From contig CM060732.1 of the NCBI GenBank assembly GCA_030704615.1, positions 50,902,001 to 50,966,000 of the forward strand: a stretch of DNA of 64,000 nt, in the 5' to 3' direction. The notes beneath the pieces were generated by a model that was not told where the DNA came from, searched no databases, and worked only from the letters and a program-made list of their open reading frames with translations. Source of the DNA: Takakia lepidozioides (Eukaryota; Plantae; Bryophyta). The position numbers and the translations under genes were made by a program. Of this stretch, positions 13,091 through 52,607 are shown piece by piece. Every line of letters starts with the position of its first letter. The stretch's first letter is position 1.

Positions 13091-13212
13091 TAAACCCATA
13101 GCTCCGGAATCATGGTGGACATGCGGGGTAAAGAATGTCGTTAATAAGAAATAAGAATAATAATAAGAAATAAGTTTTTTTTTTTTTTTTTTTTTTTCCC
13201 GGCATTTGGGTA

Positions 13213-13385
13213 GATGTCGTCGATGATCATTGTGAAATCATGATCATGAAGAAATTGAGTGCGTTGACCCACTCAGTTCTCCGTGGGGCGGAGGGGAGGG
13301 GGAAAAAAAAAAAAAAAAAAAAAAAAAAAATGAATCTTGTTCTGCCCCGTTCCCACCCCCTCCACACGCTCCACCCCCCCACCCG

Positions 13386-13423
<38 letters not shown>

Positions 13424-13493
13424 GGAGAATTGAGTGCGTCAACACACTCAATTTCTTCATGATCATGATGTCAGGATGATCATCGACGACATC
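13213..13493. repeat. MITE/foldback-like element with about 70-bp inverted arms around poly-A and poly-C tracts
   Basis: 13213-13281 (gatgtcgtcgatgatcat..catgatcatgaagaaattgagtg..ttctcc) is the near reverse complement of about 13423-13493. Confidence 0.7.
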
Positions 13494-14040
13494 GACGACA
13501 GTGTTGTGTGGGTCCGGATTTTAACCCCGGATACCCGGCGGGCAATACGAACAAACTCATCATGTTGATTTTTCTTAGTTTTCCACCATTGGCATAGGTG
13601 ACACTGTCGTGCGCATACATATCGCTACACAACTACATCGCTGTCCAAAACCACACAACACATGTGCACACCACACACTAGTATACCACTAGTCCACCAC
13701 TAGTCCAACCACTAGGCTACAACTAGTCAGTCACTAGGCTGCCACTATGCTGCCCACTATGGCAGTCACTAGTCCACACAATCGCCCCCCTAGCTGGTGT
13801 TTAGGTCCATCTAAGTCCAGGTAGCCACAAGATGTGATAGTGACCATAGCCTCACTAAGTCCTCCACCACTATCCCTACTACACTCAAACTCGATAGATC
13901 AAGAGGTCGGGTGCAAGAGTTGCCCCATCGTTAGTCGTCGTCTTGCAACCTGTGAACTTGAGCTTGGGATCTCATGTATTGACTCCTATGAGCTTGGCCT
14001 CCCATGTCTTGTTAGCTGCCTCCAGTCATGTCCACTGCCA

Positions 14041-15350
14041 CTATCCCAAGCAGTGTGGACACAACCAATCTCCGTCAGGAACCTTCTCAAGAGGTGGTGT
14101 CAAGCATCCCATATGCCAACCCCTTGAGCATCGATCACACACCAGCATGGTGGCTGCCCCTTTGGCAGACCCACAGAGCATGCACCTCAAACCTGCAGGT
14201 ACCACTGCCAAGTTTGGGTCAACTCTGTCATCGACATTGGAAAGGTGACATGGCGCACAATTACGCACATGGTCCTTCCAAGTCATGCCATCCCGACCCT
14301 CTAAGATCAGGACCCCTGAGGGCAACACCTCTCGAACCCTCAGAATAACACGCCCTGCAGTAACATCCAGAGTCGTAGGAGCAGTCTGCTGCAAATAAAC
14401 ATAGTCACCAGGGCTAAACCTCCGAACCCCAGGACGATATCCTCCACCACGTATAGTGGCATACCTCAACGTATCACGGTGTTGTGCAATGGCAAGGTTC
14501 TCAAAAGCCATGGGCATGACTTTCTTGAACAACTCTGCACGCTGATCACATGCACGTACCCACACGTCCGGATCGTCAAGGTTAAGGACTTGAGCAGTGT
14601 TCCTACGAATGGCTGCAGGCAAATCCGGCTCTCGGCCAAAGAGAAGGAAATATGGTGAGAAGGAGGCAAGTGATGCTTGTTTGCTGAACCTGTAGCCCAT
14701 GGCTAACCAAGGAACCTGAAGATCCCAATCTCCTAGGTGTCCCTTCTGCAAGCCATACTTGCGCAAACCCCTCTTCACCGTCTGAACAACTCTCTCTGCT
14801 AAGCCATCGGCCTCAGGATGATCCCGAGAAGTGTGCGGTGGTCTATCAAGGCTTTATCACACAAAGCCTGAAACTCCCCCAAGAACTCTCTCCCTTGGTC
14901 CGTGAGTACCTCAGCTGGAGCACCAAATCGGCTAAGCACACGATCCAAGAATGCATACGCAACCCCCTCACTAGCCTTGTCAGGCAATGGAACCAACTCA
15001 ATCCACTTGGAGAAGTGCTCCACCATCACCAACACATATCTGTGGTGGCGCATAGTCAGTGGCAACGGTCCTGCGAAGTCAAGACTCCACCTGTAGCCCA
15101 ATCCCATGATTGGTAAAGGATGCAACTGTGGTGTAGGGGCGTTGAATGAAGCACGCACCCTGTCACACACCATGCACCTAGCCACGAACTGTTGCACCTC
15201 TGTATGCATACCACGCCACCAATACTGCCCCTGCAGTAAACTGTGAGTGCGTCGCACTCCAAAATGCCCCAACTCCTCATGGGCATGCCGCACTAACCGT
15301 GCACGCTGTGTGGGGTGAGGCACAATCCTCACCCGACCATCCTCCCACAC
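14041..15350 (-). CDS. Integrase (HHCC zinc-binding + DDE core) with C-terminal PHD finger; frameshift at about 14.8 kb
   Basis: HAHEELGH..CMVC; SLDFAGP, TDQGREF, FSPYFLLFGRE; C4HC3 CMLC..CDRC..WHMGC..WLCPHC. Confidence 0.9.
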
Positions 15351-17014
15351 TCGAAGTAGGTGTATCCCCTCCCACTTGAACCTCTTGGCTCGTTGCAGGA
15401 TCCGATCCCTCTCCCTGCAGTCACAGTGGCTGCCATGTCTCCCGTGCGGAGGTAGTCCAACACAGCCGAATCCTCATGTATATCTCTGGCACCACCTGGC
15501 TCATCACTAGCCTCAGGGTCCTCAGACACTCCGTCTACAGTCATCCATGTTGTAGGTCCAACCTGACCTCCCGATGCCAAGATACACAAAAATGCAGATG
15601 CGTGCCATCCCGGCACCATCTCCTCGTCCGTCTCACCATGCCACCGAGCTCCAGTGTCATCCTGCTGGCTCATGCATGGATTGCGACTCAATCCATCCGC
15701 ATCCCGATTGACCAAACCCGGTCGATGCACAACCTGAAAGTCATACTCCTGGAGTATAAGTGCCCACCGTGCAAGCTTCCCCGTAAGCTTGTCTGACTCC
15801 ATCAACCACTTGAGTGGCTGGTGATCCGTGACAAGGGTGAAAAGATTGCCGTATAGATAGCACCTGAAGTGTGCCACGGCCCACACTGCAGCTAAGCACT
15901 CTCCCTCATATGAGCTGTACTTAGCCTCTGCAGCGTTGTTCGAGCGGCTAGCGTAAGCCACTACGAACTCTCTTCCCTCATCATCCACCTGTGTGAGCAC
16001 CGCTCCAAGCCCCAACATGCTCCAATCCGTATGCAGCTGAAAGGGACGCCCCCTGATAGGTCGTCTCAAGATAGGCGCCGAGGTCAACCTCGCCTTGAGC
16101 TCTTGAAAAGCTCGTTCCTGCTCATCTTCCCACTGCCACTCCTGGTCCACCTTGGTCAGCTTGGTTAGAGCCTTTGCAATGGTACTAAATCCCTTGACAA
16201 ACCGTCTATAATAGTTTGCCAACCCCATGAAAGCTCGAACTCGGCTCACATCCGTGGGGCGTGGAATTTGTGCAATGGCCTCTACCTTAGTCTGCTGTAC
16301 CCCCAATCCTCCAGGATATATCATGTGACCCAGATACTCAATCTGGTTGTGGAAAAACTTGCACTTCCCCGGATGCAACTTCAATCCGTGCGCTCTCAAG
16401 CGCTCCAATACCACCTGAAGGTGTCTCTCATGCTCCTCCATCGTAACACTAAAGATGATGATGTCATCTATGTAGCACCGAGCAAAGTCCACCCCTGCTA
16501 GAATCCTATCCATGACTCTCTGAAACTCTGCAGGAGCATTCTTAAGCCCAAATGGTAAGAACCGCCACTGATATAGGCAATCCTTGCCGTGCTCATTGAT
16601 CCCCCAGAATGTCGTCTTCTGCTTGTCCGCCTCCTTGATTGGCAACTGGTGATATCCGGATCGTAAATCCAAAGTGCTAAAGGCCTTAGCATGCCCGATG
16701 GCATCAAAGATCTCCTCTGGTGTTGGCATGGCATACTTATCGGACTTGGTCTGACGATTTACAGGCCGGTAATCACCGCACATACGTCTCTCCGTCCAAT
16801 TGCCATAGACATCCTTCTTGGCTGGCATCACTGTGGCTGAAGCATACTCTCCACCAGAGAGCTCCACCAAACCTGCCTCCCAGAGATCTTGAGTCCTCAT
16901 CTGAATCAAAGACCTCTCCATGTCACTGTATCTATAGGGTCTCCGAAAGATTGGCGTGTCAGTGGCCAACTCAATACGGATCTCTTGACCCTTCAGTGCT
17001 CCCAAGTCCTTCAA
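15329..17014 (-). CDS. Gypsy reverse transcriptase + RNase H
   Basis: [56 protein letters not shown]. Confidence 0.95.
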   Translation of the reverse strand: MKDLGALKGQEIRIELATDTPIFRRPYRYSDMERSLIQMRTQDLWEAGLVELSGGEYASATVMPAKKDVYGNWTERRMCGDYRPVNRQTKSDKYAMPTPEEIFDAIGHAKAFSTLDLRSGYHQLPIKEADKQKTTFWGINEHGKDCLYQWRFLPFGLKNAPAEFQRVMDRILAGVDFARCYIDDIIIFSVTMEEHERHLQVVLERLRAHGLKLHPGKCKFFHNQIEYLGHMIYPGGLGVQQTKVEAIAQIPRPTDVSRVRAFMGLANYYRRFVKGFSTIAKALTKLTKVDQEWQWEDEQERAFQELKARLTSAPILRRPIRGRPFQLHTDWSMLGLGAVLTQVDDEGREFVVAYASRSNNAAEAKYSSYEGECLAAVWAVAHFRCYLYGNLFTLVTDHQPLKWLMESDKLTGKLARWALILQEYDFQVVHRPGLVNRDADGLSRNPCMSQQDDTGARWHGETDEEMVPGWHASAFLCILASGGQVGPTTWMTVDGVSEDPEASDEPGGARDIHEDSAVLDYLRTGDMAATVTAGRGIGSCNEPRGSSGRGYTYFECGRMVG

Positions 17015-17439
17015 ACTGAAGGCAAAGCAATTCCTGTAAGCCCTCAGGAACCGCCGTATACGTCGTCTCTCTCCTCCGGTGACAATGGGTCCAATGTCAG
17101 GCTCCCAATTGTCCTCCGTAACTGCAACCTTAAGTCCAGTGGGCTTAGAGGTAGAGGACGCGTCCAGTGGTTGCTATGTTGCAACCTCTTGAGCAGTACT
17201 CCCTGCCTGCTCAGTCAATGACAAGGCCTCATCCTGCCCCATCATCTCATCCTTGAGGACCTCCTCAACCGAGAAGAATCCCCAACCTCATCCATCACAG
17301 CCGCCTTGGCTGCCAACTCCCTCTGAACCTCGAGCACCTCCCACGTGTGCCATGGATGCATGCACCCCGTGGTCCTCACATGCTCGCCCCCACTCACTGC
17401 CTGTACCGTCTCGGTAGGCAGAGAGACCATTGAGGGAAG

Positions 17440-18415
17440 TGTACTCCGCACTCTGCGTTGCTCAGCAGAGCCAAGCTGATAATCCAGGTCAAGCAATTGA
17501 GATCCATTGCTTGCCCCAACACTTGACGACGTGATGCCTCAGAAAGAGACGACACCGCCGTGGTACCAGTGGTAAAACCCATTGCCCGCTCACGCTCGTC
17601 AGCATTAGGCTCCACTAACTGCTGCAACTGAGCATCCCACAGGAGGCCAGGTCCACTATCCCGGAAAGCATGCGATCCTGGGAAGCTGAGCAGTGTAGGT
17701 AATGCTGCTCGTGGTTGACCCACCTTGTTGACCACTGCCAAAGGCGAACGGTCATCGTGTCTCACACGCTGAAACTGCCTCCCTGTGTCCAGAATGTTAT
17801 CCACTGTGAGATGTGCTGGCCGCTGCACCCCATCAAATGCACGCTTGAGCAGTGCGGGTGGCATCAAGTTAGTCCACCATAGCCGTGGACGATGAGCCCG
17901 TGACCCCACTGTAGCTGCATCTAGCAACACTGCTGACCCAAGCCACGACCGGACTTGATGCACACTGGCCATCACCCTGGCCCGAGAATCGCCCATCAGT
18001 GGCACATTCTCCAAGATGTATGCTGGAGATACAGCTTGATGAAGCTGCAAGTGGCGCAAAACCCGCACCATCTCCCAAAACAGACCCGACCTCGAGTCTC
18101 GCAATCCATTGCCATGCCCGGCTGATGAATGCCCTTGGCAGGGCCAACCTGCCACTACCAGATCAATGGAGCCAACCCGCTCCAAATCCTGCGCCCCCAG
18201 CAACGAAATGTCTGCTGGCAAGGCCTGCTGATATCCACGAATTGCAGACACCGACAACAACTCAGGGTACCGCTGCACCAACTGAGCAACATGGCGAAGT
18301 GAAACGCGTCGTGCAGTCTCATCCCTCTCCACATACAGGTAACGCCGAACTCGTACACCTGCTTGTAACACAGCAGCCAATCCGGTGCTGATCCCGCCAA
18401 ACAAGTCCAAAACAA
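17440..18415 (-). CDS. DNA (cytosine-5) methyltransferase domain, DNMT3-like, inside the pol polyprotein
   Basis: C5-MTase motifs in canonical order: VLDLFGGI (I), YVERD (II), ADI (III), DLVVAGWPCQ (IV), YILENV (VI), RAHRPRLWWTNL (VIII), ERERAMGF (IX), RRQVLGQAM (X). Confidence 0.9.
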
Positions 18416-19341
18416 ATGCCTTCATCCGGATACTGCCACACAATAGGTGTGGTGTCCAATGGAGACAATTGAGGTGGTCCTGGTGCAATCCCCACACTCT
18501 CCTCCTCTCCTGACGGTACAAAAGCCTCCACCCAGGCTTGTTGCACCCGTCGATCAGCATCCCGCTGCAAATCCTTGCTCGTGCCCCACAATGGAGTCTG
18601 AGCAACCATGGTAGGCAACTCCGCCATACCATACATGTCATCCTGCTCTCCCGGAGGTGGTACATCCTCTGAATGAGCATTGCCCTCAAGCAACTCTCTA
18701 GGCCAACTCACTGCCGCTGTGAATGCTGCTAGTGTCGGCATCTTGCCTCGCTGGGCAACCGCAACTCCTCCTATGAACGTCACAGGGAGCTGCACACGCC
18801 GGCCCTCCCCTGACTGCCATGCAGGCCTATAGGAAGCTGACTCCTCCCAAAAATCCAGGGTGAAGCCCATGGGGTACAACACTGCCCCACCAACCAGGAC
18901 ATCGTATGAGACTGCGTCTGTCACAATGGCCTTGGCTCGCATCACTGAGCCATCTGTAGGGTGATCCGGCCGTAGTCTGATAGCCAACTCACGCCGTGTC
19001 ATGCCCCGAGCCTGCTCCGATCCTCCCAGAGACGTCTGTATCTGGAAAGGACAAGGCTCCATATCCGCCTCCGTGAGGCCCAAGCCTGCAATAGCAGCTC
19101 TGCCCAGCATCAGTGGCTGAGCTCCCGAGTCCAACAAGACCCGCAGTGGCCGGTACCTCTTGCCTGCCGGTCCACTCAAACAGAAAATGCCATCCTGGTT
19201 GTCTAACATGACAACTCCAGGTGTCACCATGGCGCGCTCAATGGCTGGCCTAGCTGGCAGCTCCATCAACCTGGCAGCTGCAGCTTGCCATGGCGCCGCC
19301 GTGGCAGTCTTGACCCTCAAATCCGAGGATCCCTCCGGCAC
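18410..19341 (-). CDS. Retropepsin-type aspartic protease and linker
   Basis: VLLDSGAQ active site and YDVLVG motif; joins the DNMT frame through a 2-nt indel at about 18410. Confidence 0.8.
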
Positions 19342-19527
19342 TACACCTCCCAGTACTCCGCAGAAGATGAAGTAACCTCCCCACTCTCACAGAGTGTAGC
19401 TGCCAGCCTGAACACCTCAGCTGGTCTTACCCCCGGCGTCGCAATCATGGTAGCCGAGAACAATGGAGCCTGGCACACAGATGTGGCCGCTCCTAGCAGC
19501 ACACTAGCTGCCGTAGCCTTGGCAACA

Positions 19528-21341
19528 CTAGGTAGTGGTGCTACCCGTGTAGCTCTCCCCAATGGCATAGTAACCTCCGCCTCGGTAACAGTCGGCGCGA
19601 GAACTAGGTGCCATGGATGGCGTCGACACTGTCTCCGCCAATGTGAATGACTGAGGAAGCCTAGCCTGACGGCTTGCCTCCCCACGCTGTGGATCCAACT
19701 CCACCTCTGCACCTCGTGGCTCAGGAACTCGTGCTGCTCCTCGAGTCACGGCTGCAGCAGACTCCACCTGCACTAGTGGTAGTGCTGCTCCACACATGAA
19801 TCCCATGCCTCCCATATCTCCTCCCTCAGGAGCAGGAGGTGGACCATCCGGCCTTAGAGCCGGTACCACCTGAGCTGTAGCCATGGCAGCGAGCCTCTGC
19901 TCTAGCTGCTGAAGCCGGTTGGCCATGCCTTGGTCAACACCCTGACCTCCGCGTCCTTGGCCACGTTGAGCTTGCCCTTGGTCTCGTGGCTGGCCACCTC
20001 GTCCTCTCTGGGCTGCTCCACCTCGCCCCGGCCACCATTGTTCCCTTGGAACTGGCCTGGGCGCAACTCAGGATGCAAACATAACACTGGGCCTCTCCAT
20101 GCCCGTGCTTGCCACAATGCCCACACTGCAACTGTGCAGGCTGTGCATGTGCCGACCCTTTGCCTCCCTCTGGGCAATCCTTCTTGACATGGGGTCCTCC
20201 ACATGTCCAGCACACCACATCCGCCCGTTGTTGGCCAGCAAATGAAGGGAGAGACCCCTGCATCTGAGGTCCTCTCTGCCCTTCCCTGAGCTTCACCTGA
20301 GCCCCCTTGTTGCCTTGAGCACGTTGAGGTAGTGGTTGGCTAGGAGCACCACTACCCCGTGGTGTCTCCTTAGCAAATCCCACCATGACCACTCGTTCCT
20401 CCACCATGTTGAGCTCTATCCGCTCTGCCAGCAAAAACACATTTGCTAAGGTGGGTTGGGCCGCTTGTAGGAGAGTTGCATCCCGCACCTTCTCCTCAGC
20501 TCCTTGTCCAATATCCCATACCAGAATGGACTGCCTGAGCTTCCGTAACCCCTTGGGTTACATTTATCAAGCGCCTCATGCGAGTGAAAGCCTCCCTCAA
20601 GCTCTCGGTCGGCTTCCGTTGGAACTCTTGCAAGCTCCGCAACTTCTCTGTCCTCACCCCTTGGTAGTTCCCTCTCAACTCTTCGAAGAACTCCACAACA
20701 GGGTTGAAGGCAGGCACGGGTGCTAGTGCTGGTGCGGTAGTGGCTTGGGTGGACGTCGTAGCTACTGTACCACCAGTCCCACTAGTTCCACTGCTACTTG
20801 CTGAAGCTGCCGGTGCAGCGGCAGGTGTAGCCACTGCCCTCGTGGCTCTAGTGCCCCTAGTGATGGAGACATAGTCGGGTGACCAGTACATCCTCCACTC
20901 CTCGATCTCAACCTCATGCCCCCGCCTGAACTCATGGTAATCATCCATAGGCGGCCCCTCAAGGTGCTGAAACAGCCCTTTCCATGCCATGAACGGCGTA
21001 AATAGTTGTGGATTGCGCATTTGCTGCAAATCACACCAACTATCAAACTCTTGGATAAAATCATCCAACTCGATGGTGCCCACCGCCCCAGAGTACCTTC
21101 GTGGCCCCTTGGTAGCTCCATACATCTCCTCCATTGTGTCCCACAACAATGGCAAAGAAACAACTTGCACCGCCGGTATGAGTCCTCCTGATTCACAATC
21201 CGAATCAGAACCTTCCGTGGAAGACACAGGAGGTGAAGGTGGCCTAAACCGCACACCTCGTCTCGTGTACCCACTAGTATCGCTAGTGCTCGAACCGGCA
21301 CTGTCCCCAGCAACTAGTGGCACCTCCGTGTTGACACTCAA
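19528..21341 (-). CDS. Gag with two CCHC zinc knuckles (frameshifted)
   Basis: LQEFQRKPTESLREAFTRMRRL gag-like motif; CWTCGGPHVKKDC and CGHCGKHGHGEAQC. Confidence 0.75.
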
Positions 21342-22049: not shown

Positions 22050-23290
22050 CAGACCAGCACAGGCCCACACAGCTCACTGGTCACAGCCGTCACAGTCCCA
22101 CAGGCCACTGGGCACAGCCTGTCACAGCCCCTCATAGCCGTCACAGCTCACAAGCCCGTCACAGCCCCACACAGCCGTCACAACCCGCACGCCCGTCACA
22201 GCCCCACAGGCCACTGGGCACAGCCTGTCACAGCCCCTCACAGCCCCAAAGGCCTCAGGCACGGCCTGTCACAGCCCCTCACAGCCCGTCACAGCCCCAA
22301 AGGCCTCAGGCACGGCCTGTCACAGCCCCTCACAGCCCCAAGGCCACGGGCACAGCCTGTCACAGCCCCCACAGCCCGTCACAGCCCCACAGGCCACTGG
22401 CACAGCCTGTCACAGCCCCTCACAGCCCGTCACAGCCCACAGGCACTGGGCACAGCCTGTCACAGCCCCTCACAGGCCACAGGTCACAGCCGCACAGGCA
22501 CAGGTCAGGCACGGCCTGACACAGCCCCAACAGCCCTCAGCAGACGGACACAGTGTCACAGCCCTCACACAGCCCATCACAGCAGAGCACACAGCGCAAA
22601 CTCAGGCACGGCTGTCACAGGCCCTCACAGCCCATCACAGCCCCAAGGCACCGGCGACAGCCCGTCACAGGCCCCTCACAGCCCGTCACGGCCCCGAAGG
22701 CACCGGCACAGGCCCTCACAACCCGTCACAGCCCCGAAGGCCACCGGCGCAGCCCGGCACAGCCCTGTCACAGCCCTGAAGCCCCCGGCACAGCCCCTCA
22801 CAGCCCAAAGGCCTCAGGCACGGCCTGTCACAGCCCCTCACAGCCCGTCACAGCCCCAAAGGCTCAGGGCACGGCCTGTCACAGCCCCTCACAGCCCATC
22901 ACAGCCCCAAAGGCCATGGGCACAGCCTGTCACAGCCCTCACAGCCCGTCACAGCCCCCACGGGCCACTGGGCACAGCCTGTCACAGCCCCGCACAGCCC
23001 GTCACAGCCCCACAGGCCACTGGCCACAGCCTGTCACAGCCCCCACAGCCCGTCAAGGCCCACAGGCCACGGGCACAGCCGTCACAGCCCCACGGGCACG
23101 GCCGTCACAGCCCCTCACAGCCCGTCACAGCCCCAAAGGCCTCAGGCACGGCCTGTCACAGCCCCTCACAGCCCATCACAGCCCCAAAGGCCATGGGCAC
23201 AGCCTGTCACAGCCCCTCACAGCCCGTCACAGCCCCACAGGCCACTGGCACAGCCTGTCACAGCCCGCACAGCCCGTCACAGCCCCATCC
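22050..23290. repeat. Minisatellite of 10-11-bp TCACAGCCC units in a higher-order unit of about 50 bp
   Basis: Recurrent ggcacagcctgtcacagcccctcacagcccgtcacagcccc. Confidence 0.9.
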
Positions 23291-23769
23291 ATGGCCGCTC
23301 TGGCAGTTTAGCCATTTCTCCAAGGGGTTTAGCCACGCCAAGCTAGGGTTTGTGTCTCTTGGACTCTAGGCTTCTTTCCACCGAGCTATGGCGGCTGTGA
23401 GGAAATCAGCAAGGTATTCTTGCTCTTTCGGCTCCCACACACCACCATAGTAGCCCTAAGCCATGAGGTGGTTGCCACAAACCAAGCCTTCTTTCTCACT
23501 TAGCCTCCCCAAACACGCCACTAAACTCAATGGCAAACAACCAAGCCCTGCTGGTTCCCAGCCCTTGTGAGCACTCATTCAAGCACTCTCCTTGGCCATA
23601 GCATCTGTCTTAGAGCCTATTCCAGCCCCTACACCTGCTGCTTCAAGAGTTGCGCTCCCTTCAAGCTTGAAGTTGAAAACCCCAACTCACATAGGCCCTA
23701 CAAGTGCTTTTCTTTCACTCCAAGTGGAAACCAGCCCTAGACCTTCCGTTCTAGCTCTCTAAAGCTTGA

Positions 23770-24140
23770 AAACAAGAGCCTCAATGGGCTGAAGGCATGC
23801 TCCACACATGCCCCACTCTCACCATAAGAGAATCAGCTCCTTTGCTTCATTTCTTGCACCCACAAACCTGAAAATACAAGCTTCAGCAGGCTGAAAGCAT
23901 GCTCCACATGCCCTACAGGGAAACCAGCCCTTCCTTCCTTTCTTGCACTCCCACACCTGAAAGTGCAAGCCTTCACCAGGCTGATAGCATGCTCCACACA
24001 TGCATTGCCCTCACATAAGGGAAGTCAGCCCTTCCCTCTTCCTTGCTTGCCCTCCAAGCTTGAAGATGGAAGCTTCAATGAGCTGAATACATGCTCCACA
24101 CATGCAACCTCTTCACACAAGAGATATCAGCCCCCTATCT
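23770..24140. repeat. Four degenerate 90-103-bp repeats with conserved core GCTGA..CATGCTCCACACATGC
   Basis: Cores at about 23795, 23897, 23987 and 24090. Confidence 0.75.
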
Positions 24141-26407
24141 TGGCTCCTTGGCTCCTTGATGCTCTCTAAGACAAGACTAAGCACTCCACAGCCTTTGCCA
24201 AGCTCCTGAAACCCTAAGGCTTACATTTCCAGCCACAAGACACTTCTCTTGTGGTGCAAGAGCTCTTCTTCCAAGCTCTGAAACCCTAGGTGCACATTCC
24301 ATGGCCTTGCCGCACCTCTTAGCTCCTGTTCCAGCCCTGCTCTTGCCATGACAAGAGCCCTCTCAATGCTGAAGCTCGAGATTGAAACCCAATCTCACCA
24401 TACTCCACAAAGTGCACTGATTTGCCCCAAGCCAAATCAGCCCTTTCGCTTGGTCTTGCAATCCTTCACACAATGAAAGCTCGCATTCCCAAGTCCAGTT
24501 CTCAGCTTTGCCACCAAAGCCACTATAACCTGCTCTTGACTGGTCCTCTTCCCAATCGTGCTTGCTCATGCATGTACACAATCTGAAACCATCAAGGTGC
24601 TCTGGAATTACCTGCAGCATGGTGCTTTCATCTCTGAAGCTGAAGATCGAATGCCAGGTCTACCACCTCGTAACCCACATCGCCTCCGCTTCTAACAACC
24701 AAGAGCTCCACGGTGCTCCTTGCATAACAACTTGGTTTCTCTCATTCTCAAGCAAAAACCACAAGTGCTACAACTAACTCGTATCTGGCACTCACAGATA
24801 CGAGCTCATCTTTCTCGAGTGATAAAGAAGAAAGAATAGAATACAAGCACGAGCTCACAAATGAAGCATAAACTCATGCATATATAACCTCATCACTCAA
24901 ATACAAGTCAAGCCAAGTGCACCCCACGCCATGGGGAATCCACACTACGGCGCCATAGCTAGGCGCGGTGAGGCTCAACTCGAGAAAGATGAGCCTTCCG
25001 CGCTTGCCGTGAAGATAACCACTCCAGGGCCTAAATCTGCCTTGACCCCTGGATTGACACTTGGGCCAATCCCAAATGTCAATATGTAAAAGCTAGCTAT
25101 TTCCTAGCTAGTTTCACACTAGTGGTAAAATAACTTGACACCACATGCAAGCATCATCAACATCCATTTGATTCACAAGGGTGGAAATACATGTAGACAC
25201 CAATCGAGGAATACCTAGAAGTGGGCACTGCACTACTCTATACCCCATATATATAGTCACTCCTACCTCTTTTCAAAATCCCTTAAAAAAAACCCTGGTT
25301 AAGGTCCGAGGATCCGGACCCGTGCCATCACCAAAAACTCGGATCCTAACCCGGGTTCATTTTTAAAATGAACCCGGAACCAGACCCGGGCCCGCCAGCT
25401 AGGCCCAGAACCCGTTAAACCCACTACTCGCGGGCCAGAGTTGGTGAGTTGGCCATCTTCCCTAGTTCACCAGTTGACATTCTGGACAGTTCTACTTTCT
25501 AGATAGTTCTACTATTGTCGGTGGGTTGAAAAGCAACTCACTAGTGGGTGTGGCTGCTGTAAGAGTATACTTATAGAAACAGTGACCAGAGAAGGTTGGG
25601 GCTTGGTGAGAGTGGGGCCAGGTGAGATCGCGGCTTGGGGCTCGTCTTCAAGGTAGAGCGCTTGGGGCTGGTGGAGGGTGGGACCAGTTGCGTGAAGTGC
25701 TTGGGGTGGGAGTGCTTGGGGTTGACGAAGTAGGGCTGGGGGAATTGGGTCAATCGTCATGCTTCTAAAGGGGACTCAATATTGTCGTGTTTGCCTTGTT
25801 TGGAAGTTTTGTCGTGTTCACCTCTTCTTCCAAAATATATGCTTCCACGGTAATAGGACCCCTTCTAAATCCTGTCCTTGGTTATAGGACTTGCTTCTCC
25901 CTCCTCTAAACCCTGGGCTCACACTTAGCAAGTGTGAGCCTAGGCTCACGCTTAGAGGGCAAAGCATGAGCCGAGCTCCTGGGCTCACGCGGCTAGGCTC
26001 ACGCCATAGCTACGCTCTAATTGCAGAGAGAGGAGATAGCAAAATGGCGGCTTGTGTGTTTTGTGCAGTGAGGGAGAGAGAGAGTATGTCTGCTCAAGCT
26101 TCCTTGTGTTTTGAAATTTTCGTGAGCAAGCGCGATGGCCTCCAGCTCTGAGCACGGGTGGTGTGAGCTCGATCAATTTGAGGTTCCTCACATGCGGCAA
26201 ACCCAGGCGCTCGAATCTCGTTACATCTGTGAACTTGCCCGCCACCTTTTGCCAGAGCAGATAGTGTTCGCTGATTACCTGGAGGGCAAACCTCTCCCAC
26301 ATCCTGAGCTTCCGCTGGACACACTCTCCGAGTTTTGGGCTAAGACCTTCGAGGAGAATGCTCGCAAGGAGGCTTCTAGGCCCATACACACCAGAGCGGA
26401 GCGCAAG

Positions 26408-27916
26408 TGTCGCGCACCTTACTTCGGTAAGCTCCCCTTCAAGTCATAGTTACTCGCTTTGATGCGCGTGCCTAACTCCCAAACTGGTCGCCGAGCCCTC
26501 ACCGAGCCAATTCAGAGCTTCGGCTGTTCACCGGGACATAACGGTCCCCCTTTACTCCTCCACTTGACCCTCTCTCAATTTGAGCCAAGTGGAAATTCCC
26601 TTTGGTCGATGGCAGTCCGGAACAGCTCCCCATACCTTGGTTGCTTTCCGGCTCGCACGCTTACTCACTTGTTTTTGGTTCACCAACGGCTTGCCCACCG
26701 TTCTCGGGGTTACTACTCCCTATATATACTTCTGTGAATGGGCAGCGGGGTTTGAAAAACAACCATGTCATTTTATGGCGAACCACCACGAAAACCCTCG
26801 ATTCCCGGTGATGAGTCGCGGTGAGTCTTGGCCCACCACCCACGGCCCCATTGGACCGTGATGAGTCCCAAGACTCCCCACGGCTCCCACCACAAGGTCT
26901 CCGCCCCATGGTGAGTCCTATGCCACCCCCAGTAAGACCCACTAAGCTACCACCATCCCTCGTGGAACCACCCCCACCGCAACCCGGTGTGCGGGGCTCC
27001 ACCTAGTGAGCACCTCTCCTTGAGTGCCTTGGGCACTCAAGGGTGCTTCAGCCCCCATACCTATTGTTGCCACTGCCCCCACCACAGGGGCAGCCCCCTT
27101 AAGTCCCGACGTCCTGCCCTCAAGGCAAAGGGCCGCGACACACACCCCTACCAACAAGGAGTCGATGTCCTCATCGACTTGTCCATTTTGTGAAAACGAA
27201 TATCCAAGTTGTGGCGTCCCACATCAAGGAGTTTGTTTCCGCACCTTGGCGTCTCATGGCAAAGAACCAAACCCCCACTTGACTCTATTCTCCACTAGCT
27301 AGTTCGGCCGACTTCCTCCAAGTCCCGGCCAAGGGTGGAGCCTCTCAAGCTCCTCCCAGTGCACTCTCTTGGCCCACTTCAAGGCCAAGGAGCGATCCTC
27401 TCCGAGGATCGAATCGCCTTACTGCACCAACATTGATTGCGACCGCTCATGATGCCGCTTTTGGCATCACCTTGAGCAAGGGTTCACCTTCAACCCTTTT
27501 TGACCAGGAAGATAACCTTGAACCAACCGTGCGCCCCAATCACTACAACTGGGTCCGCCTTGGAATGCTGGCCTGAGGTACGGGAACACGCCGAAGCCGC
27601 ACTACGACTTTGTCCCGAGTATGTGCACGCGTCAGGTGCGCACTAACACGTGAACTCCCAAAGAAGGCGCAAGTTTTCTTGCCTCTTGGATGGGAGTCAC
27701 CCGATTTCGGCACTGTGCAAACACACGATTAATCCAATTTACCTCTCCCACTTTTGTAAGCTAGCATGCATTCTACACACTAACCAGCCATACCATGCAT
27801 CATCATTCCAAACAAAAAGACACACATTTAGAAACCATTTCATTTATAACAAAATTTGTACAATACAAGTTTTTGCAATCGGATTCCTGAGCTAGCTAAG
27901 CCGAGCTAAGCATGCA
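26408..27916 (-). repeat. 3' LTR, about 1.5 kb, TG...CA
   Basis: Starts TG, ends CA next to the PPT; first ~620 bp match 32311-32916. Confidence 0.8.
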
Positions 27917-27925
27917 TTTCCTCCC

Positions 27926-30900
27926 CTACGCTCCAAGGTTGATGTCCCCATCAACGCTTCTTCCGCTTTTGAGGTCGCCCTTCGAAAGTTGCAACCGCCT
28001 CGGATGCGTTCCCCATTTCTGAGGCACGCACCCAAGATGCCTCCACATGATGATAGCCCTCCATTTCACGAGATACTCTATTTCTCGATTCTTAAACCTC
28101 CTCGACTTAAGCATTGCCTCCACCTCGTACTCAGGTTCATTTTCATGATCTAATAGTATAGGTGGCAGACACAACACTTGATGCCGATTCGGACGCGCTT
28201 CATCTTTGAAGTAAGGTTTCAAAAGGGAGACGTGGAATACCGGATGCACCTTGCTGTTTGCCGGCAACTCCAATTCATACACATCCTCATTCATAACCTT
28301 TCGGATGCGAAAGGGTCCCGCATACGGAGGTACGAACTTCGGACTCACTTCCGGAGGTAGTCGGAAATTTGTGATGTTCAACCAGACCTCCGTGCCTACC
28401 TCAAACTTAACTTCCCTCCGCTTCCGATTCGCCTGCCGTTCATACCGTTTCCTAGCTTTGGCAATGTTGTACTTTGCGAGCTTCAACAAACGCTCGCGTT
28501 CTTCCAGCACCGCTACTGCTGCCGGTTCCTCGACGTCTTGGGCGGCCCAACTTGTCGGCACCAGAGGTGCTTTTCCATAGACCAATACGAAAGGGGAAAC
28601 TCCCGTTGCGGAATGTTTTGTGTTATTATAACAGAACTCTGCCGCATCCAAGTGCTCCACCCAGTCCGATTGGTCCGCCGACACGTAATTCCGCAAGATC
28701 TGCTTCACCACAGAATTCACCCTTTCTGTTTGGCCGTCCGTTGTAGGTCGGAAGGCGGTGCTCATCTTGAGCCTCGTCCCCATCTTCTTCCAAAGTGCTC
28801 TCCAAAATTTATTTGTAAACTTTGGATCGCGGTCCGAGACAATATCCTTTGGGAGTCCATGATGCTTGAAGACGTGGGCGAAGTAAAGTCGCCCCGTCTC
28901 CTACGCCGTTGTCGTCTCCTTGGTGGGAATGAAATGGCCCATTTTACTGAACCTATCCACCACCACCATGATTGCATCGAATCCTTTTGACAGCGGCATG
29001 GCAGTCATGAAATCCATCGAAACACTTTCCTAAGACCCCTCTGGAATCGGCAAGGGTTGTAACAGCCCCACTTGCTTTTTGTACTCGCTCCGGTTTTGTT
29101 GGCATGTGGTGCACGTCTTGACATACTCCTCGGCCTCATCCCTCAGTTTGGGCTAGAAATACTCTTTCTTCAAGAGTACCGCAGTGCGCTTGGCTCCGCC
29201 GTGGCCCGCAAGCGGGCCATTATGGCATTCTCTCAAGAAACTATATATGATCCCTCCCTTCGGCACGTTGGGACGCTTTTGCTTATACCGGAGCAGTCCA
29301 TTTTGCAAATGAAACTGCGATTTAACCCCCATCCTCAAGTCCCGCATCACAGACTTCGCCATCTCATCCTTCCGGTAAGCCTTCCGGATCTTCCTTTGGA
29401 GCGTCGTCTTGCCGCTGTACACCAACATGAGCTGCTCCTTTCTACTAAAAGCATCGGCCACCACATTTTCTCGTCCCGGTTTGTACTGGATATCCACGTT
29501 GAACACCGCCAAAGTGTCTTGCCACCTAAGTTATTTTGGGGACAACTTAGGCTGCGTGACAAAATACTTCACCGTGACATTGTCCGTGAATACCTTTACC
29601 GGGTTGGAACCAACATAGTGGCGCCAAATCTCAAGGCAATGCACCACCGCCTTCATTTCTTTCTCATGCGTAGGCCACCTTCGCTCCACTTCATTCAGTT
29701 TCTTATTTTCGTAAGCCACTAGACGTCCATCCTGCATGAGCACACCCCCAATTGCGAAGTTCGACGCATCTGTATGAATCTCAAATGGACGGTCGAACTC
29801 CGGAATTTTCAAGACGGGAGCTTCCGCCATCCGTTGCTTCAACTGAGCAAAAGCTTGGCCACAAAAGGTGTTCCATACCCAGACTTTGGATTTACACAGA
29901 AGGTCTGACAGCGGCCCCACGATCTTGGCGAAATTTCTCACATACTTCCGGTAATAGGAGGCAAGTCCTAGGAAAGATCGCACTCCCGGAACCGAAGTCG
30001 GAGGCTCTCAGTCCAAGATCACACTCAACTTTCTGTTCCATTTTGATCCCATCCTGTGTAATCACATGCCCCAGGAACTCCACTTTTGTGACCCCGAATT
30101 CGCACTTTGAAGCTTTGGCATACAGCTTCCCTTCCCGCAATTTCTGGAACACCCTTTTGAGGTGCTCCAGGTGCTCTTCCTTTGTTTTCAAGTACACCAA
30201 GATGTCGTCGATGTACACGATCATAAAGTCATCCAACCACTCCTGGAAAAGGCTGTTCATTAGCGTGCTAAAGGTCACGGGTGTGTTGGTGAGCCCAAAA
30301 GGCATCACCAAGAACTCATACGAACCATATCTTGTCATGCACACGGTCTTCTCCTCATCTCCTTCCGCCACTCGGATTTGATGGTAGCCGGAGCGCAAAT
30401 CGATCCGGCTGAAATACTTCGCTCCTGCCAACCGATCGAAGAGGTCGTCGATCCTTGGCAAATGGTACTGGTTCTTGATAGTCACCTTATTCAGAGCCCT
30501 ATGATCGACACACATCCGCAGCGTCCCATCCTTCTTGTCTGCGAATAGCACCGGGGCTCCGTAGGGTGACTTACTCGGCCGGATGTACCCCTTTGACATT
30601 AGATCCTTGAGCTGAGCCTTCAGCTCAACCAACTCTCTGTGGCTCAACCGGTAGGACGCCTTGGCATGCGGCTCCGATCCCGGTATCACCTCAATCTTGT
30701 GGTCAACTCCTCTTCGCGGTGGCAAGCCGCTTGGAAAATCCTTCGGCATCACATCCCATCCATCTCTATTTATCCAAAATCCCATTGATCCAATCTGGGC
30801 TCGGCTCCCTATCGTCTTCTCCCTTCACTTGTCTTACGTAAAGCAAAAACTGGGGCTCGTGTGGCTCCTCCACGGCCCACTCCTTTGCTGTCAACATGTT

Positions 30901-31948
30901 TATTCGCCCTCCCACTAGGTTGGGTGTTTCCGACACTTGTAAAACTTCGCCACCATTCCCACACGACAACGTGACTACTCTCTTGCGGCCATCTATGACC
31001 GCTCCTGCTCAAAAAGGTCATCCCTAAAATGAGATCCACTCCATCGATCTCGCAAATGGTGAAGTTCTCACATCCCTCCCAACTCCCCAGCTTAAAAGGA
31101 ACATCGAACGCCAACCTCGTCGCCAGTTGTGGCTCTCTTTTGGCAAAACGCACTTCAATAGAGGCCCCCACATCACTTGTCAGGAGCCCCAGCTTTCGTG
31201 TCGATGCCGGTGTCATGAAGGAGTGCGACGCTCCTGTGTCCACCAACAACGACACATTAGTTCTGGAAATTATCCCACTTACGAACATTAACTGACTCCC
31301 TTTATGCAAGGGGCCAATCTCCTGATACAACTCACAAGACTGGTTGCCTACCTTGCAAGTCTTGGCAACCACCGCTTGCACCAAGTGGCTGATGGAATCT
31401 TCGGACAGCTCCGTGGTTGCCCGAGTCATGTTCAATTGTCAGGGTTTCGCGCACTTCTTGGCCATGTGCCCGGGCTCCCCGCAATTAAAGCATACTCCAT
31501 CGAAGGTCGCCTTCTGTCCGCCATAAGCCGTCGCACCTAATTTTCTTTTCGGAGCACCGGGTGTTGCATTGACGTGTGAAGGCCCTCCCTTCGATTTCCA
31601 CGTGCCATTGTCGCCGCGTGGCCTATCCCACTTCTTTTCCAGTCGGAAGGAGTCACCCTCTAGCCGAGTCTTCTTGTGGTTCAGCTCCGTACGGCCTTGT
31701 CTTTCGCCCCTAGGGACATCCGAGAAACATTCAACCCTTTCAATTGCCTCGTTCAAAGTCTTAGGTGGCTTCTCCTCTAACTTCCGCCTGGCCCATGGGG
31801 CCAGTCCCGCCACAAAGTTGAAGACCATTTCTAGTTCCGTCATATCCGCGACTTCGAGCAACAGCACATTGAAAGCCTGAAAGAGCCAGGTGTTGAGTGC
31901 CTTCCGATTTTGGACACCCTCGAAGGTGTCGGGTTCCTTAGGTTTCAC
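27926..31948 (-). pseudogene. gag-pol of the chromovirus, frameshifted
   Basis: CFNCGEPGHMAKKC; LLVDTGASH; MPFGLTN, YIDD; HTDAS; TDGQTERVN; PYAGPF; chromodomain EYEVEAMLKSR..EYLVKW. Confidence 0.9.
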
Positions 31949-32310
31949 TTAAACTTTTCCCTAGTGGAAGTGGCGTTAGCCGCCTTCAACACGTCTTACA
32001 ACGTCCGCCCAACTGCGCTAATAATCCCTCCCAAAAGGCTGCTGGCATGGGAGGCATCTGTTGGTCTGCCAGAGCCTCCGGGGAGTCCTCGGGCTTCGAA
32101 TCCCCCAATTCCTCCTGTTCTTGAGCGGCCTCGCTTTCAAAAGCATGAATCGTCTCCTCAAATTGCCGCTTCGGTGACACGTCGCCCCCATCGGGCTTAC
32201 CATGATCATCATCTTTCGGGCCGTTCCGCTTTCGCTTTGGCTTGCCCGACCCCATGATGAGGCCGATCTCAAGAACGATTGCGTACTGAACTCTAAGCTT
32301 TGATACCAAG

Positions 32311-32916
32311 TGTCGCGCACCTTACTTCGGTAAGCTCCCCTTCAAGTCATAGTTACTCGCTTTGATGTGTGTACCTAACTCCTCAAACTGGCCGCTGGGC
32401 CAACTCGGAGCTTTGGCTGCTCACCGGGATATAACGGTCCCCTTTACTCCTCCACTTGACCCTCTCTCAACTTGGGCCAAGTGAAATTCCCTTTGGTCGA
32501 TGGCAGTTCGGAACAGCTCCCCACACCTTGGTCGCTTTCCGGCTCGCACGCTTACTTACTAGTTTTTGGTCACCAACGGGCTTGTACCATTCTCGGGGTT
32601 ACTACTCCCTATATATACTTTTGTGACTGACCGCGGGGGTTTCACAAACAACCATGCCATTTTATGGCGAACCACCACGAAAACCCTCGATTCCCGGTGA
32701 TGAGTCGCGGTGAGTCTTGGCCCACCCACCACGGCCCCATTGGACCGTGATGAGTCCCAAGACTCCCCACGACTCCCACCGCAAGGTCTCCGCCCCCATG
32801 GTGAGTCGTATGCCACCCCCACTAAGTCCCACTAAGCTACCACCACCCCTCGTGGAACCACCAACCCGGTGTGCGGGGCTCCACCTAGTGAGCGCCTCCG
32901 CCTCCTTTAGTGCCTT
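32311..32916 (-). repeat. Remnant of 5' LTR (about 600 bp next to the PBS)
   Basis: Homologous to 26408-about 27030; similarity stops after agtgccttg. Confidence 0.85.
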
Positions 32917-32971
32917 GAAGCAGATGAAACTTTAGCGACTTCTAACTCATATGATCACACCTCTTCCTTAT

Positions 32972-38356: not shown

Positions 38357-40108
38357 CTAAACTCGAAGCCAGACACTTGAAGACCGTGACAGCTTCACTG
38401 CAGCTTCAGGATTATAAGCTTTCCTACAACCAGGGCACCGACCGTCATCTGAGGCGATCCTGTGATGACAGAACAGACAGAGTTGAAAACCACAGGTGCA
38501 AGGGATGTAAGAAGAATCAGTCATATCAAGCTCCTCTGTGCAGATGGGACAATAGGATGGGGTTGGAGGGGGGCCCCACATATTCCCATGCCCGGAGCCC
38601 CACCCTTGGTTATTATTACTGGACTGATGGATAGGGTAACTGTGCTGCTTTGTAAGCCTTGGCAATGTGGGCGGCCGTGATACATCGTCTGGTCTCCATG
38701 CTCTGCCCCCATTGCCCCTTCTTCCCCCAAAACCACTGTTCTTATACTTGTACTCGGGCTTCAGCTGACCACTCTGTAGCTCTGAATGCAGTAATCCATT
38801 GGACTTCTTCTCGTGTGAATCCTTCCCGTCAGGATGTGAAACACGATCTGAATTAGGGCCTTTATGCGTCCCATCACACCGGTATGGAGACCCCTGTATG
38901 TACAGTGCATCTGCAGCAACCTCCCAGTCATCTTCAGCATCATGAGTATCGTTGTTATCTTCGAAACCACTTCCAGTATAGCTGCTGCTTGCACAGCTGC
39001 TTTTCGACTGGGATGTGCTTGCATCGCTGCTAGACCAACCGTTTCCTGCGTCTTGCTTATGTTCAACCCCTCCGTGCTGGACCTCCTCGTCCCCAAAATA
39101 TTTGGGCCGGCCTCCTACATGCTCTGGCCGTCTGACTGGCACCTCTTTTTTGATATTCTTACCTTCACTAGAACTCGTGGCGGTAGAACGAGAGTTCATG
39201 GCAGGAGAACCTACAGGTGTACGCTCGGTTGTATTAGTACTTGAGCCACTCAACTGGCTTCGACAATGCCCGGAAGTGCCTGCCATGTCGTGCCCTGTGT
39301 ATTCACTTGATGCCTCTCCCGTCTTAGGGTGGTCAAAAGTTTGATGCTCTTCTTCCGGCTTCCCTTGCTTCCCTGCAGGCAATTCCAGCAATTCCACACT
39401 CCAAATCGTCAAATCAAGAGATCCCTACCGTTGCGAAGTAATTCCAAGTACCAATCTACACAAAGTGCACTGGAAACCCTGGTTGAAAGCAGTCGATATA
39501 TGTGAAACGGATAGATCTCGTAAGCAAACCGTGCGTAGCAAACCCTCCATGGCAAGCAAAGGATACAATGATATCATTCGCACGCGACTTACCCTGTGAT
39601 CCTTGTGAACCATGTAAGCCCTGCGAAAGCCACTGCTCTCGACGAGCATCTTGCTTACACTGCTTCAACCTCGCCGTCCGGTTCACCTGTATTACCAAGT
39701 TACAATCTTCCTTAGGACCATATCGTCAACAGCAACATACTCATATCTCTATGAACATTCATGATGCATAGATTCTGATGAAACGTCTTCACATGAAGAC
39801 CCTAACCACAGTTTATGTCTGAAAGGAGACCACAGAAAGAAGTGGCCGATCTTAAACCAAACAAACAACGTTACGAGCATCGCCTACATATATCTCACCC
39901 GCTTCCGCTTGCTGGCATCCTTGGCACTCAAGAATTCGGCCCTAGATTGCGGATGTTTGCTCTCACAGCCTCCCGTATGCAACCGCACCAAATCCTGTTC
40001 CAGCTGCTGCTGGAATGCGCTTTGGCTGGGGCCCGAACGGCGCTGGCAAGGGGGAGCGTTGACAGTAGACAGCGGGTTAGAAGCGGCCATATTACGTTCC
40101 ACCACCAT
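38357..40108 (-). CDS. Plant NOT4-type C4C4 RING (zf-RING_4) protein; exons 40108(or 40090)-39899, 39686-39593, 39372-38357
   Basis: N-terminal KRKRVNRTARLKQCKQDARREQWLSQ; C-terminal CPICTEELDMTDSSYIPCTCGFQLCLFCHHRIASDDGRCPGCRKAY; phase-compatible GT-AG junctions. Confidence 0.85.
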
Positions 40109-40639: not shown

Positions 40640-41932
40640 TTAGCTGCACAAGAGATAGCCGGTGTCATTTGAGGCGGGGAAACAATAGAAATGTTCAAGT
40701 CCTTCAAAGTCTGCTCGAGCACAATGGTTGCGCGCTTCTCCAGCTGCAAATGGTACATTTGTCAGTTTTGCAAATAAGGTACTCATCACATTCATGAAGT
40801 CAACAAAGATGGAATTTCTTTGAATGCACACCCGACTCCAAAATATAGCCTTGTGAAGCCAGTTGTCAAACACAATGTCACTGATTCCTTCCACCTTTGT
40901 GCCAGGCTGTATAGTGCTATTTGGGAACTGATTCAAGTCCTTCACTATCTGATATGAGTTCCAAATCTCCAGCCAGAATGCTCCAAGCTCGTATTGCAAG
41001 CACCACGGAAGTGCCTGATCCAGGATATGATCGGGTGTACACAATGATCACTTTGACATCTGCTGTTCATGACAAGGCCTACGACATCACGGTTTCCAAT
41101 TTCCCCAATTGCACATGTCCTGATTTTGTGAGTATGCTATCAACCAGTTTGGGCAAGAGAGGTAAATTCATACCCTGCAAACATTTGTATTTCGTATTTT
41201 TGAAGAGGATGGTTTGCGATCCCAAACGTAACAACTTCGTTCCCTAGGCCACTCTGAGTTTCAACGAGGTCGATACTCTATTGCAGCGGGATACAAACAC
41301 ATGGGTAGCATCAACTATGCAATGTGGTATGTGGACGACCATGCTATGAAATGTGAAATTCAAATCAATTCGTTTGCAACATCGTCGGCGGTCCAATGAT
41401 ATGGCGTCCCTTATCTCTCCATTATGCTTCCAACTATACTGAGTGAGCTCTGAGTGACAACTTTTAAAAGCACATGCATCATTGCACCGTTCGAAGTCTA
41501 CATGTCTTCCTGTCGTTATGCACTTCAATCATCTTTTGAAGATGATCCTAACTCTCATTGTTATTTGGGGAGGGAGGAAGATTATCCCATGGCAGCCTCT
41601 ATGGCGCACACTTTGTGAGGATATTTTCTCGTCGTCGTAATTGTAAAAGTGAAACAAGCAATGTTGGATGCTACAATTGTAGGCCTCATGGTAGTCTTGA
41701 TTGTATTCAGGCAAGGATTCCCTGCATTAATCCCACGGTCATAGGACCATCCTCGGTTATAGGCGGCGCATGTTAATGCTGACGTGGCATATGACGGCGC
41801 AATGCCACATCATCATTTGCCGCCACATCAGCCTGCTGACATGACGCTCACGCCACGTCAGCATGGGTGCAGGCTCACGCAACGTCAACTGGCGTGAGCG
41901 TACGCTCGCGCGCTCACGCCATTGCGTCGTTG
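40640..41932 (+). mobile_element. Internally deleted, diverged relative of the MULE at 46225-56742
   Basis: About 40660-40973 matches 49420-49731 and about 40975-41932 matches 55765-56742 (SWIM end and the same terminus CCATTGCGTCGTTG); left boundary not found. Confidence 0.8.
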
Positions 41933-51757: not shown

Positions 51758-52607
51758 TTTCTCTCTTGCTCTGCGTCTCTCTCTAAGGGAAGTAAAATAA
51801 AGAGACTTTCTTCTCTTTCGTATTCTAGAAGGAACCCTCTCCAGCTTGACTACCACTCTCCCTCTAAGCGCGAAAAGTAGAAAAACGCAGTGACTCCCGA
51901 TTTCTTGCGGGATTGCCTGTGTTCTTGCGTGTCTCTAGAAGCATCGGATTCCCTCCCGCGTGACCGTTACACATAGTCGTTTCCTTATTAGTGCACATGC
52001 CAGCAATTGGTGTACAGCTGTTCGTTCAGTTATGGATGTCTGACGTGTGCCGCCCAAAAAAAACGGCGTGTTCTTTATTATAACGGGTTCAATATTTAAA
52101 AGAACAGCGAATCCCAGAAATTGATGCGCAGTCTTAAACAAATAAATATAAATGAACGAGAGTTTGATGACAAATTTTGGAATATCATACACGGTCATCC
52201 TTGTTATCCAAACCCCACATTCGTTTCACATTTGGAACTTTCCAGGTGCGCATGATCATTGGTAGTAGTATATAGATACATTTACTTAATCTGCAATCCC
52301 ATTCTCAGATCCTGTGGCATGCTTCCAGGAAGTCGGCTTTGTTATTGGGTTTATTGATGAGGTTCTGATTAACGGTTTAACAGTTGCCGACACTGCCCCT
52401 AGGATACTCTGACCACTGGGCCCACAAGAAAAGTAATTAAAATGGACGGCTGCATATCTGGAATGAATAACAGAATATGCACAGTCGTTATCTGAGCTTC
52501 CTCCGCCATATTCTCTGCTCATTCTTCAACTGTGTTCTGGAGACAGCAGTAAACCGATTTACACTAGATCTGCGATAGCAAGGTACAAACATACTCGAGG
52601 AAGGAAG

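Follow-up and report, generated by a model that had tools for sequence, protein, structure and literature searches.

DNA methylation is the main weapon of hosts against retrotransposons, and why a retrotransposon should itself carry a DNA methyltransferase has been a question since 2018, in part owing to the difficulty of experiments in the known hosts. This report concerns such an element, of the Ty3/Gypsy type and with a DNMT3-like domain, found in a 64,000-nucleotide stretch of the genome of Takakia lepidozioides (contig CM060732.1 of assembly GCA_030704615.1, positions 50,902,001 to 50,966,000 of the forward strand; hereafter the window, meaning the whole stretch that was analysed). Two described systems are closest to it. 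The first is KnitGypsy-Dnmt3 of Klebsormidium nitens, a Gypsy element which, in the accessible text of de Mendoza et al. (2018; PMC5890265), bears a DNMT3-like domain described as lying within the Pol open reading frame (ORF), acquired in the K. nitens lineage and under purifying selection, together with repeats described as DIRS-like (A-coding-B-A-B). The second is SymbioDIRS-Dnmt3 of Symbiodinium, a DIRS retroelement with split repeats and a tyrosine recombinase whose DNMT3-like domains, according to the same portions of that paper, methylate CG de novo in yeast. The distribution of retrotransposon DNMT3 has since been repeated as "streptophytes and dinoflagellates" (PMC12344493, accessible part), and no mention of retrotransposon-borne DNMT3 was found in the available portions of PMC11982613, PMC6453930 and a preprint on Marchantia sperm.

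The Takakia element occupies about 11.5 kb of the minus strand and has the order Gag, protease (PR), DNMT, reverse transcriptase (RT), RNase H (RH), integrase (IN) and PHD finger (Table 1); Pfam matches and homology place it in Ty3/Gypsy by the order PR-RT-RH-IN with a DDE integrase. It shares with KnitGypsy-Dnmt3 a DNMT3-like domain that is unpermuted, lies in the coding region of a Gypsy element and is under purifying selection, and, in its relatives, the A-coding-B-A-B repeats, the window copy itself being of the form A-coding-B. It differs in that the domain ends ORF1 ahead of a UAG-CARYY stop and in that its relatives span liverworts, Sphagnum, Closterium and chlorophytes. From SymbioDIRS-Dnmt3 it is set apart by its DDE integrase and 4-bp target duplications; a tyrosine recombinase had no match in the eight window ORFs scanned, in which rve and H2C2 domains were found instead. 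The preliminary description of the locus had named the Klebsormidium precedent, which is real (PMC5890265, accessible text), and had proposed that a land-plant example would extend it, as the relatives in Marchantia, Calypogeia, Riccia and Sphagnum now do. The DNMT3-carrying Gypsy kind is thus known since 2018 (PMC5890265), and the land-plant members, the leaky stop and the PHD finger are apparently new. The words "PHD" and "Marchantia" both occur 0 times in the text of that paper, and the literature search found no paper on the three features, although subscription journals, Repbase or supplements could hold one. The available text on Phygy/Selgy (PMC6317226), lineages compared by description only, mentions neither PHD nor methyltransferase.

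The methyltransferase domain was recognised from the outset as a DNMT3-like C5 enzyme with its motifs intact in one frame and unpermuted, and this is confirmed. The stop-free frame delimited by the window ORFs and their translation contains motifs I, IV (PC), VI (ENV), VIII (RxR), IX and X in canonical order: LFGG (F at 18401), GWPCQ (P at 18143, C at 18140), ENV (E at 18011), AHRPR (R at 17891 and 17885), then ERERAMG and RRQVLGQAMD. Pfam PF00145 matches it with E 5e-13 and 49.6 bits, the cut-off being 22, and the best sequence matches in the PDB are DNMT3A (E 1e-11) followed by DNMT3B/C, with DRM at 2e-5 and M.HhaI at 5e-4. An AlphaFold2 model built from a 132-row alignment (pLDDT 94, pTM 0.92) has DNMT3A 6f57 as its top Foldseek match (E 2e-19, TM 0.73/0.83), and every Foldseek row listed is DNMT3A, B or C; identity to DNMT3 structures is 22–23% at a TM of about 0.7. 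The domain is therefore closest in sequence and fold to DNMT3, not to DRM, DNMT1 or bacterial enzymes. It would methylate cytosine in DNA, presumably with a preference for CG. Across 251 homologues the catalytic Cys is kept in 242, the motif VI Glu in 247 and the motif VIII arginines in 241 and 240. A large subgroup, 84 of the 251 and including Closterium P0245, has EC in place of PC in motif IV. Host plant DNMT3 proteins (PpDNMT3a/b and MpDNMT3; PMC6453930, available portions) share the unpermuted DNMT3-type catalytic domain but bear a C-terminal DUF3444, whereas the element's domain is intronless within a polyprotein and has no DUF3444 C-terminal to it, the Pfam scan of the ORF giving PF00145 only. 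No host DNMT3 sequence is among the protein-search matches listed for the domain.

The preliminary description had also placed the domain between protease and RT, fused to the protease and embedded in a pol polyprotein. The position and the fusion stand; the embedding does not, as a conserved stop precedes RT and relatives end there. A stop followed by CARYY, in the RT frame and just before RT, was found in 54 of the 56 copies in which the DNMT end and the RT start could both be placed (55 of 80 metagenome loci, numbered L, and the window). The contexts are TAGCAACCC in 31 copies, TAACAACCC in 15, TAGCAACCA in two (the window and L015), TAGCAGTTA in two, and TAGCAATCA, TAACAACCA, TAGCAACCT and TAGCAACTC in one each, with UAG in 38 and UAA in 16. 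DNMT and RT share one frame in 42 of the 56 copies, and a frameshift between them was rejected on that ground. The full CARYYA hexanucleotide occurs in six of the 54 contexts and recurs in three diverged families; its codons encode Q-P, Q-L or Q-S, which argues that the constraint acts on nucleotides. The window's UAG-CAA-CCA is unchanged in a contig from sequencing run X12 with 24 other differences.

Readthrough of this kind has precedents. In SIRE1 it takes place at the pol-env boundary; the element's boundary falls after protease and methylase, not after Gag or Pol. UAG followed by CAR YYA, the context seen in the window, is also the readthrough signal of tobacco mosaic virus (TMV), likewise in plant cells, with 6–10% readthrough in stable Arabidopsis lines (PMC2754532, accessible text). 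The 120 nt 3' of the stop rank 4/58, 4/57, 5/57 (tied with 4th) and 5/33 among the windows of four elements, which is the top 7–15%, and fold better than shuffles in three of the four; stem pairing registers differ between elements in a shallow alignment, and covariation was not counted as evidence. Many intact relatives terminate 60–170 residues past the DNMT domain. The conserved stop between the DNMT tail and RT, with annotated relatives ending at it, places the domain in ORF1, from which it would join RT only via readthrough: ORF1 is Gag-PR-DNMT, and RT-RH-IN-PHD is likely its readthrough extension.

Relatives are numerous. Protein searches gave 73 matches among longer proteins and 264 among those of similar length (120 of them listed), and a full HMMER scan counted 256 clusters (50% identity, E up to 1e-30). 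Among the listed matches the named sources include Marchantia polymorpha, M. paleacea, Riccia sorocarpa, Calypogeia fissa, Sphagnum troendelagicum, S. fallax, Closterium, Klebsormidium nitens and Monoraphidium. Identity to the window domain is mostly 60–77% at many loci of M. polymorpha, 76% in Calypogeia fissa and 46% in K. nitens, and Tetraselmis proteins, added by the RT search, bear a partial DNMT match of about 30%. In M. polymorpha there are full-length ORF1 gene models with every catalytic motif, annotated as hypothetical proteins, and those of 1278–1281 aa share one end position. Metagenomes yielded 205 related stretches, 80 of which were kept as loci; most form one family 90–92% identical to a Sphagnum protein (the Sphagnum-like family), heavily decayed and with many stops. 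The window thus holds one copy of a high-copy element family and not a one-off capture, since other copies carry the domain as well. Among viral contigs, three pattern matches were obtained and none was confirmed. Two family members labelled bacterial (P0094 and P0447, an Obscuribacterales metagenome-assembled genome and an uncultured cyanobacterium) are probably mis-binned plant DNA.

In the RT-RH tree (126 rows, matches aligned over <380 residues excluded; neither named REXdb lineages nor host DNMT3 sequences are in the trees), all elements that carry a DNMT fall together, separate from the Gypsy elements of angiosperms and animals; the support is 0.85, rising to 0.99 when a further environmental row is included. 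The window element adjoins Marchantia and the Sphagnum-like family (support RT 0.987, DNMT 1.0), a position that suggests a land-plant host, and the Klebsormidium protein KFL_009030040 falls in the same RT clade. Across the 44 elements that have both domains, the DNMT tree recovers 21 of 24 well-supported splits of the RT tree, and 17 of 18 are recovered in the reverse direction, with no strong conflict and a Mantel rho of 0.66 between DNMT and RT distances. DNMT and RT share descent. RT before DNMT is the commonest order among the typed representative matches (55/120), and elements with DNMT after RNase H are monophyletic (support 0.999). This clade, with the order RT-RH-DNMT-IN-PHD (P0041, P0049, P0050, P0272, P0287 and others, with Monoraphidium P0072), has the methylase relocated beside the integrase. 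The simplest reading would be a single old capture of the DNMT and one relocation. Horizontal transfer among bryophytes is possible because liverwort and Sphagnum-like elements are highly identical.

The domain is under purifying selection between families and does not evolve neutrally: pairwise ratios of nonsynonymous to synonymous change (dN/dS) are 0.06–0.24 where dS is computable, though dS is near or at saturation, and the sole unsaturated intact pair, L036/L037, gives 0.12. Within the decayed Sphagnum-like family the medians are 0.57 for DNMT, 0.39 for RT and 0.69 for protease, values that reflect decay after insertion.

Ten frame breaks interrupt the window copy (Table 1), although no premature stop falls within the DNMT, RT-RH or integrase segments. 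The preliminary description had noted one of them, the 2-nt break at the protease junction, which is real and at which relatives are fused in frame; it had missed that near 17465, eight more and the UAG. At each of the ten sites other copies in host DNA runs, where read depth does not equal copy number, differ from the window; at the protease junction the difference amounts to 2 nt and was seen in four sequencing runs. Elsewhere in the window a fold-back at 51401–63803, with about 5.4 kb per arm at 97.5% identity, has 59 gaps (54 of 1–2 nt) against 34 mismatches in 5,407 columns, a pattern that makes an indel-prone assembly probable; the fold-back itself is likely an artefact of chimeric long reads. 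The ten breaks may be assembly errors, or the copy may be dead.

The reading we prefer, with moderate confidence, is that the methylase is made with Gag ahead of the leaky UAG, packed into the particle in excess, and methylates new cDNA before integration. Ribosomes would read through the UAG at low frequency to make RT, RNase H and the PHD-tailed integrase, so that the methylase would likely be produced at Gag levels and packaged in excess; the protease would free the DNMT domain, which would mark the nascent cDNA of the element, and the new copy would arrive bearing, as host chromatin does, the mark of self. The PHD finger is predicted to read unmethylated H3K4 and so steer integration to non-promoter chromatin, a job done for animal DNMT3 by its ADD domain. 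This reading draws support from the architecture, the selection and the CG activity of the Symbiodinium counterparts. Several points weigh against it. The closest relative to have been assayed, the Klebsormidium domain, showed no methylation in yeast, a result its authors call inconclusive (PMC5890265, accessible text). DNMT is fused to RT without a stop in Klebsormidium and Closterium gene models, and in many environmental relatives it is fused likewise or located after RNase H, so high stoichiometry is not required for the job of the domain. The +6 A is lacking in 48 of the 54 stop contexts, all of the one Sphagnum-like family (46 read CAACCC), which also has an ATG two codons past the stop where reinitiation would be possible, and the post-stop fold of L015 is weak (z -0.59). 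CpG/CHG depletion, considered as a mark of self-methylation, is not diagnostic, as the CpG observed/expected ratio of 0.53 (0.86 in the window's other Gypsy element) falls within the host background of 0.37–0.60.

The same enzyme could act at or after integration instead, within a pre-integration complex with the PHD-tailed integrase, methylating both the site of insertion and the newly arrived copy, in chromatin, and not free cDNA; we consider this unlikely. The fingers of KDM5, CHD4, PHF21A, BAZ2 and AIRE are readers of unmethylated H3K4. The solved PHD fingers closest to that of the element include CHD4, KDM5B, PHF12, KDM5A and ATXR5, and also PHF21A, BAZ2, AIRE and KDM5A/B PHD1; the resemblance would pair a DNMT3 writer with an ADD-like reader. 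DNMT also lies directly before the integrase in the clade with the relocated methylase. In the window family, however, DNMT precedes the stop together with Gag, which would put it in excess over the integrase.

That the stop is a true ORF end, with RT-IN arising by reinitiation or from an RNA that is spliced or subgenomic and the methylase still made with Gag, appears distinctly improbable. The ATG of the Sphagnum-like family and its missing +6 A would suit such an arrangement, and gene callers annotate ORF2 separately; but the frame is kept across the stop in most copies, no ATG adjoins it in the window, L015 or L036 (the first Met of the window lying inside conserved RT sequence), and CARYYA recurs in diverged families. 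An action in trans on the copies in the genome, by which the element would limit its own transposition to the benefit of host and element, was raised in the Discussion of de Mendoza et al. (PMC5890265, accessible text) and would account for the heavy decay of Sphagnum-like copies, as expected of methylated DNA. It is nonetheless very improbable, as the Gag fusion suggests a location in the particle, host enzymes account for the decay, and a single copy would gain little from such a brake even though selection is strong. A neutral or non-catalytic passenger, whether a one-off capture or a mere nucleic-acid-binding module, hardly deserves credence: the inactivity of the Klebsormidium relative in yeast (PMC5890265, accessible text) and the within-family DNMT median would fit it, but the catalytic residues are near-invariant, between-family dN/dS does not exceed 0.24, RT and protease show like decay within the family, and the DNMT and RT trees are congruent.

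The repeats of the family point to an unusual integration route for an element with a DDE integrase. The window has no direct pair of long terminal repeats (LTRs) at the ends of the element. In relatives the structure is A-coding-PPT-B-A-B, where PPT is the polypurine tract, complete in L047, L055, L074 and L075, with B-A-B in L033 and L034. Eighteen loci have a PPT-linked B: seven continue into A, ten run into flank, a number that short-read collapse may inflate, and one stops at a contig end. Target-site duplications were found at eight loci with both ends, six of them perfect 4-bp and two with one mismatch (L074 and L075 may be one insertion); the window flanks, GTGG and GTGT, agree in three of four letters. 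The family has TG...CA ends and a PPT, B starts near TG downstream of the PPT and CA closes A, the pattern of a single LTR, and the element ends fall at the B|A junction, a near-palindrome GACA-2 nt-TGTC that is also present in the distant L036. This suggests that B+A is the true LTR and that the integrase may cut the internal near-palindrome on circular or linear cDNA; the A-coding-B form could come from B-B recombination. Tf1-type self-priming is not supported, as the 10-mer that follows A repeats a sequence inside A in direct and not in inverted orientation. A derivative joining A to B via about 16 nt, beside a nested inverted piece, was seen in L035 (5881–13426) and L038. A wider picture is offered tentatively and is itself rather doubtful: a green-plant-wide lineage older than the chlorophyte-streptophyte split, with a DNMT3 writer and a PHD reader, a land-plant leaky stop that would stockpile methylase in the capsid, and integration by cutting the near-palindrome inside the LTR on a circular intermediate, B+A being the true LTR and A-coding-B-A-B and A-coding-B cut products.

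Marchantia polymorpha is a genetic model with methyltransferase mutants (Marchantia sperm preprint, available portion), and with the full-length ORF1 models of this species the question of the element-borne methylase becomes directly testable, the leaky stop being a concrete prediction on enzyme dosage. Element copies could also confound counts of DNMT genes and the interpretation of methylomes in bryophytes.

Table 1. Features of the DNMT-bearing element in the window, from its 5' to its 3' end.
Feature	Position	Strand	Evidence and remarks
Element 5' end, start of repeat A (begins TGTCA)	25129..25140	-	Other copies (runs X1, X5) have loose ends at 13604 whose sequence matches the window starting at 25140; end of A not fixed
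Tandem array of short units (~10-50 nt), 5' non-coding region	22050..23290	-	Covered by many contigs in host DNA runs
Gag, ATG at 21134, frame breaks near 20526 and 20487	20081..21134	-	Pfam Retrotrans_gag weak (E 8e-4, below cut-off); 64% and 46% to N-terminus of Marchantia Mp_4g09160
Zinc-knuckle-like (CCHC) and linker region, frame breaks near 20079, 20025 and 19596	19390..20200	-	Translation, homology to relatives
Aspartic protease (LLDSGA 19134-19120) and linker to methyltransferase	18420..19386	-	~50% to Marchantia and Calypogeia relatives; no Pfam match
2-nt frame break (near 18410), protease/methyltransferase junction	18409..18415	-	Relatives fused in frame there
DNMT3-like C5 cytosine methyltransferase domain, catalytic Cys 18140-18138	17442..18416	-	Pfam, PDB sequence matches, fold, homologue conservation
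ORF1 C-terminal tail, ~95 codons, frame breaks near 17465 and 17268	17177..17465	-	Homology to relatives
Conserved UAG then CAA CCA (CARYYA leaky-stop context)	17168..17176	-	UAG at 17176-17174
Predicted stem-loop 3' of stop, possible readthrough stimulator	17057..17163	-	Folding z -2.97; rank 4/58 windows of element
Reverse transcriptase (YIDD 16474-16463) and RNase H	15730..17134	-	Pfam RVT_1 5e-33, RT_RNaseH 6e-36
DDE integrase (H2C2 zinc finger, rve core), frame breaks near 15416 and 14832	14190..15420	-	Pfam Integrase_H2C2 1e-16, rve 2e-13
PHD finger, integrase C-terminus	14044..14184	-	Pfam PHD 4e-11
Polypurine tract	13782..13795	-	Same motif precedes B in 18 loci
Repeat B, ends CGACA at 13605 = 3' end of window copy	13605..13781	-	A-coding-B form, no terminal A-B

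Other features were noted in and around the element. Degenerate repeats of about 100 bp lie at 23726–24134, also in its 5' region, and just outside its 3' end 93-bp inverted repeats flank poly-G and poly-T runs at 13210–13496, an arrangement like that of miniature inverted-repeat transposable elements. A second, ordinary Gypsy element at 26404–32917 has LTRs of about 630 bp (89% identical), a protease, RT and an SH3_Tf2-type integrase end, with no methyltransferase match in the ORFs scanned. The ORF at 38360–39424 (minus strand) has a zf-RING_4 domain and is possibly a host gene exon, and an ORF for a Ulp1-type C48 protease (41917–42870, minus strand) stands amid long repeats (40819–41865, 49577 and 55820–56633) and probably belongs to a DNA transposon.
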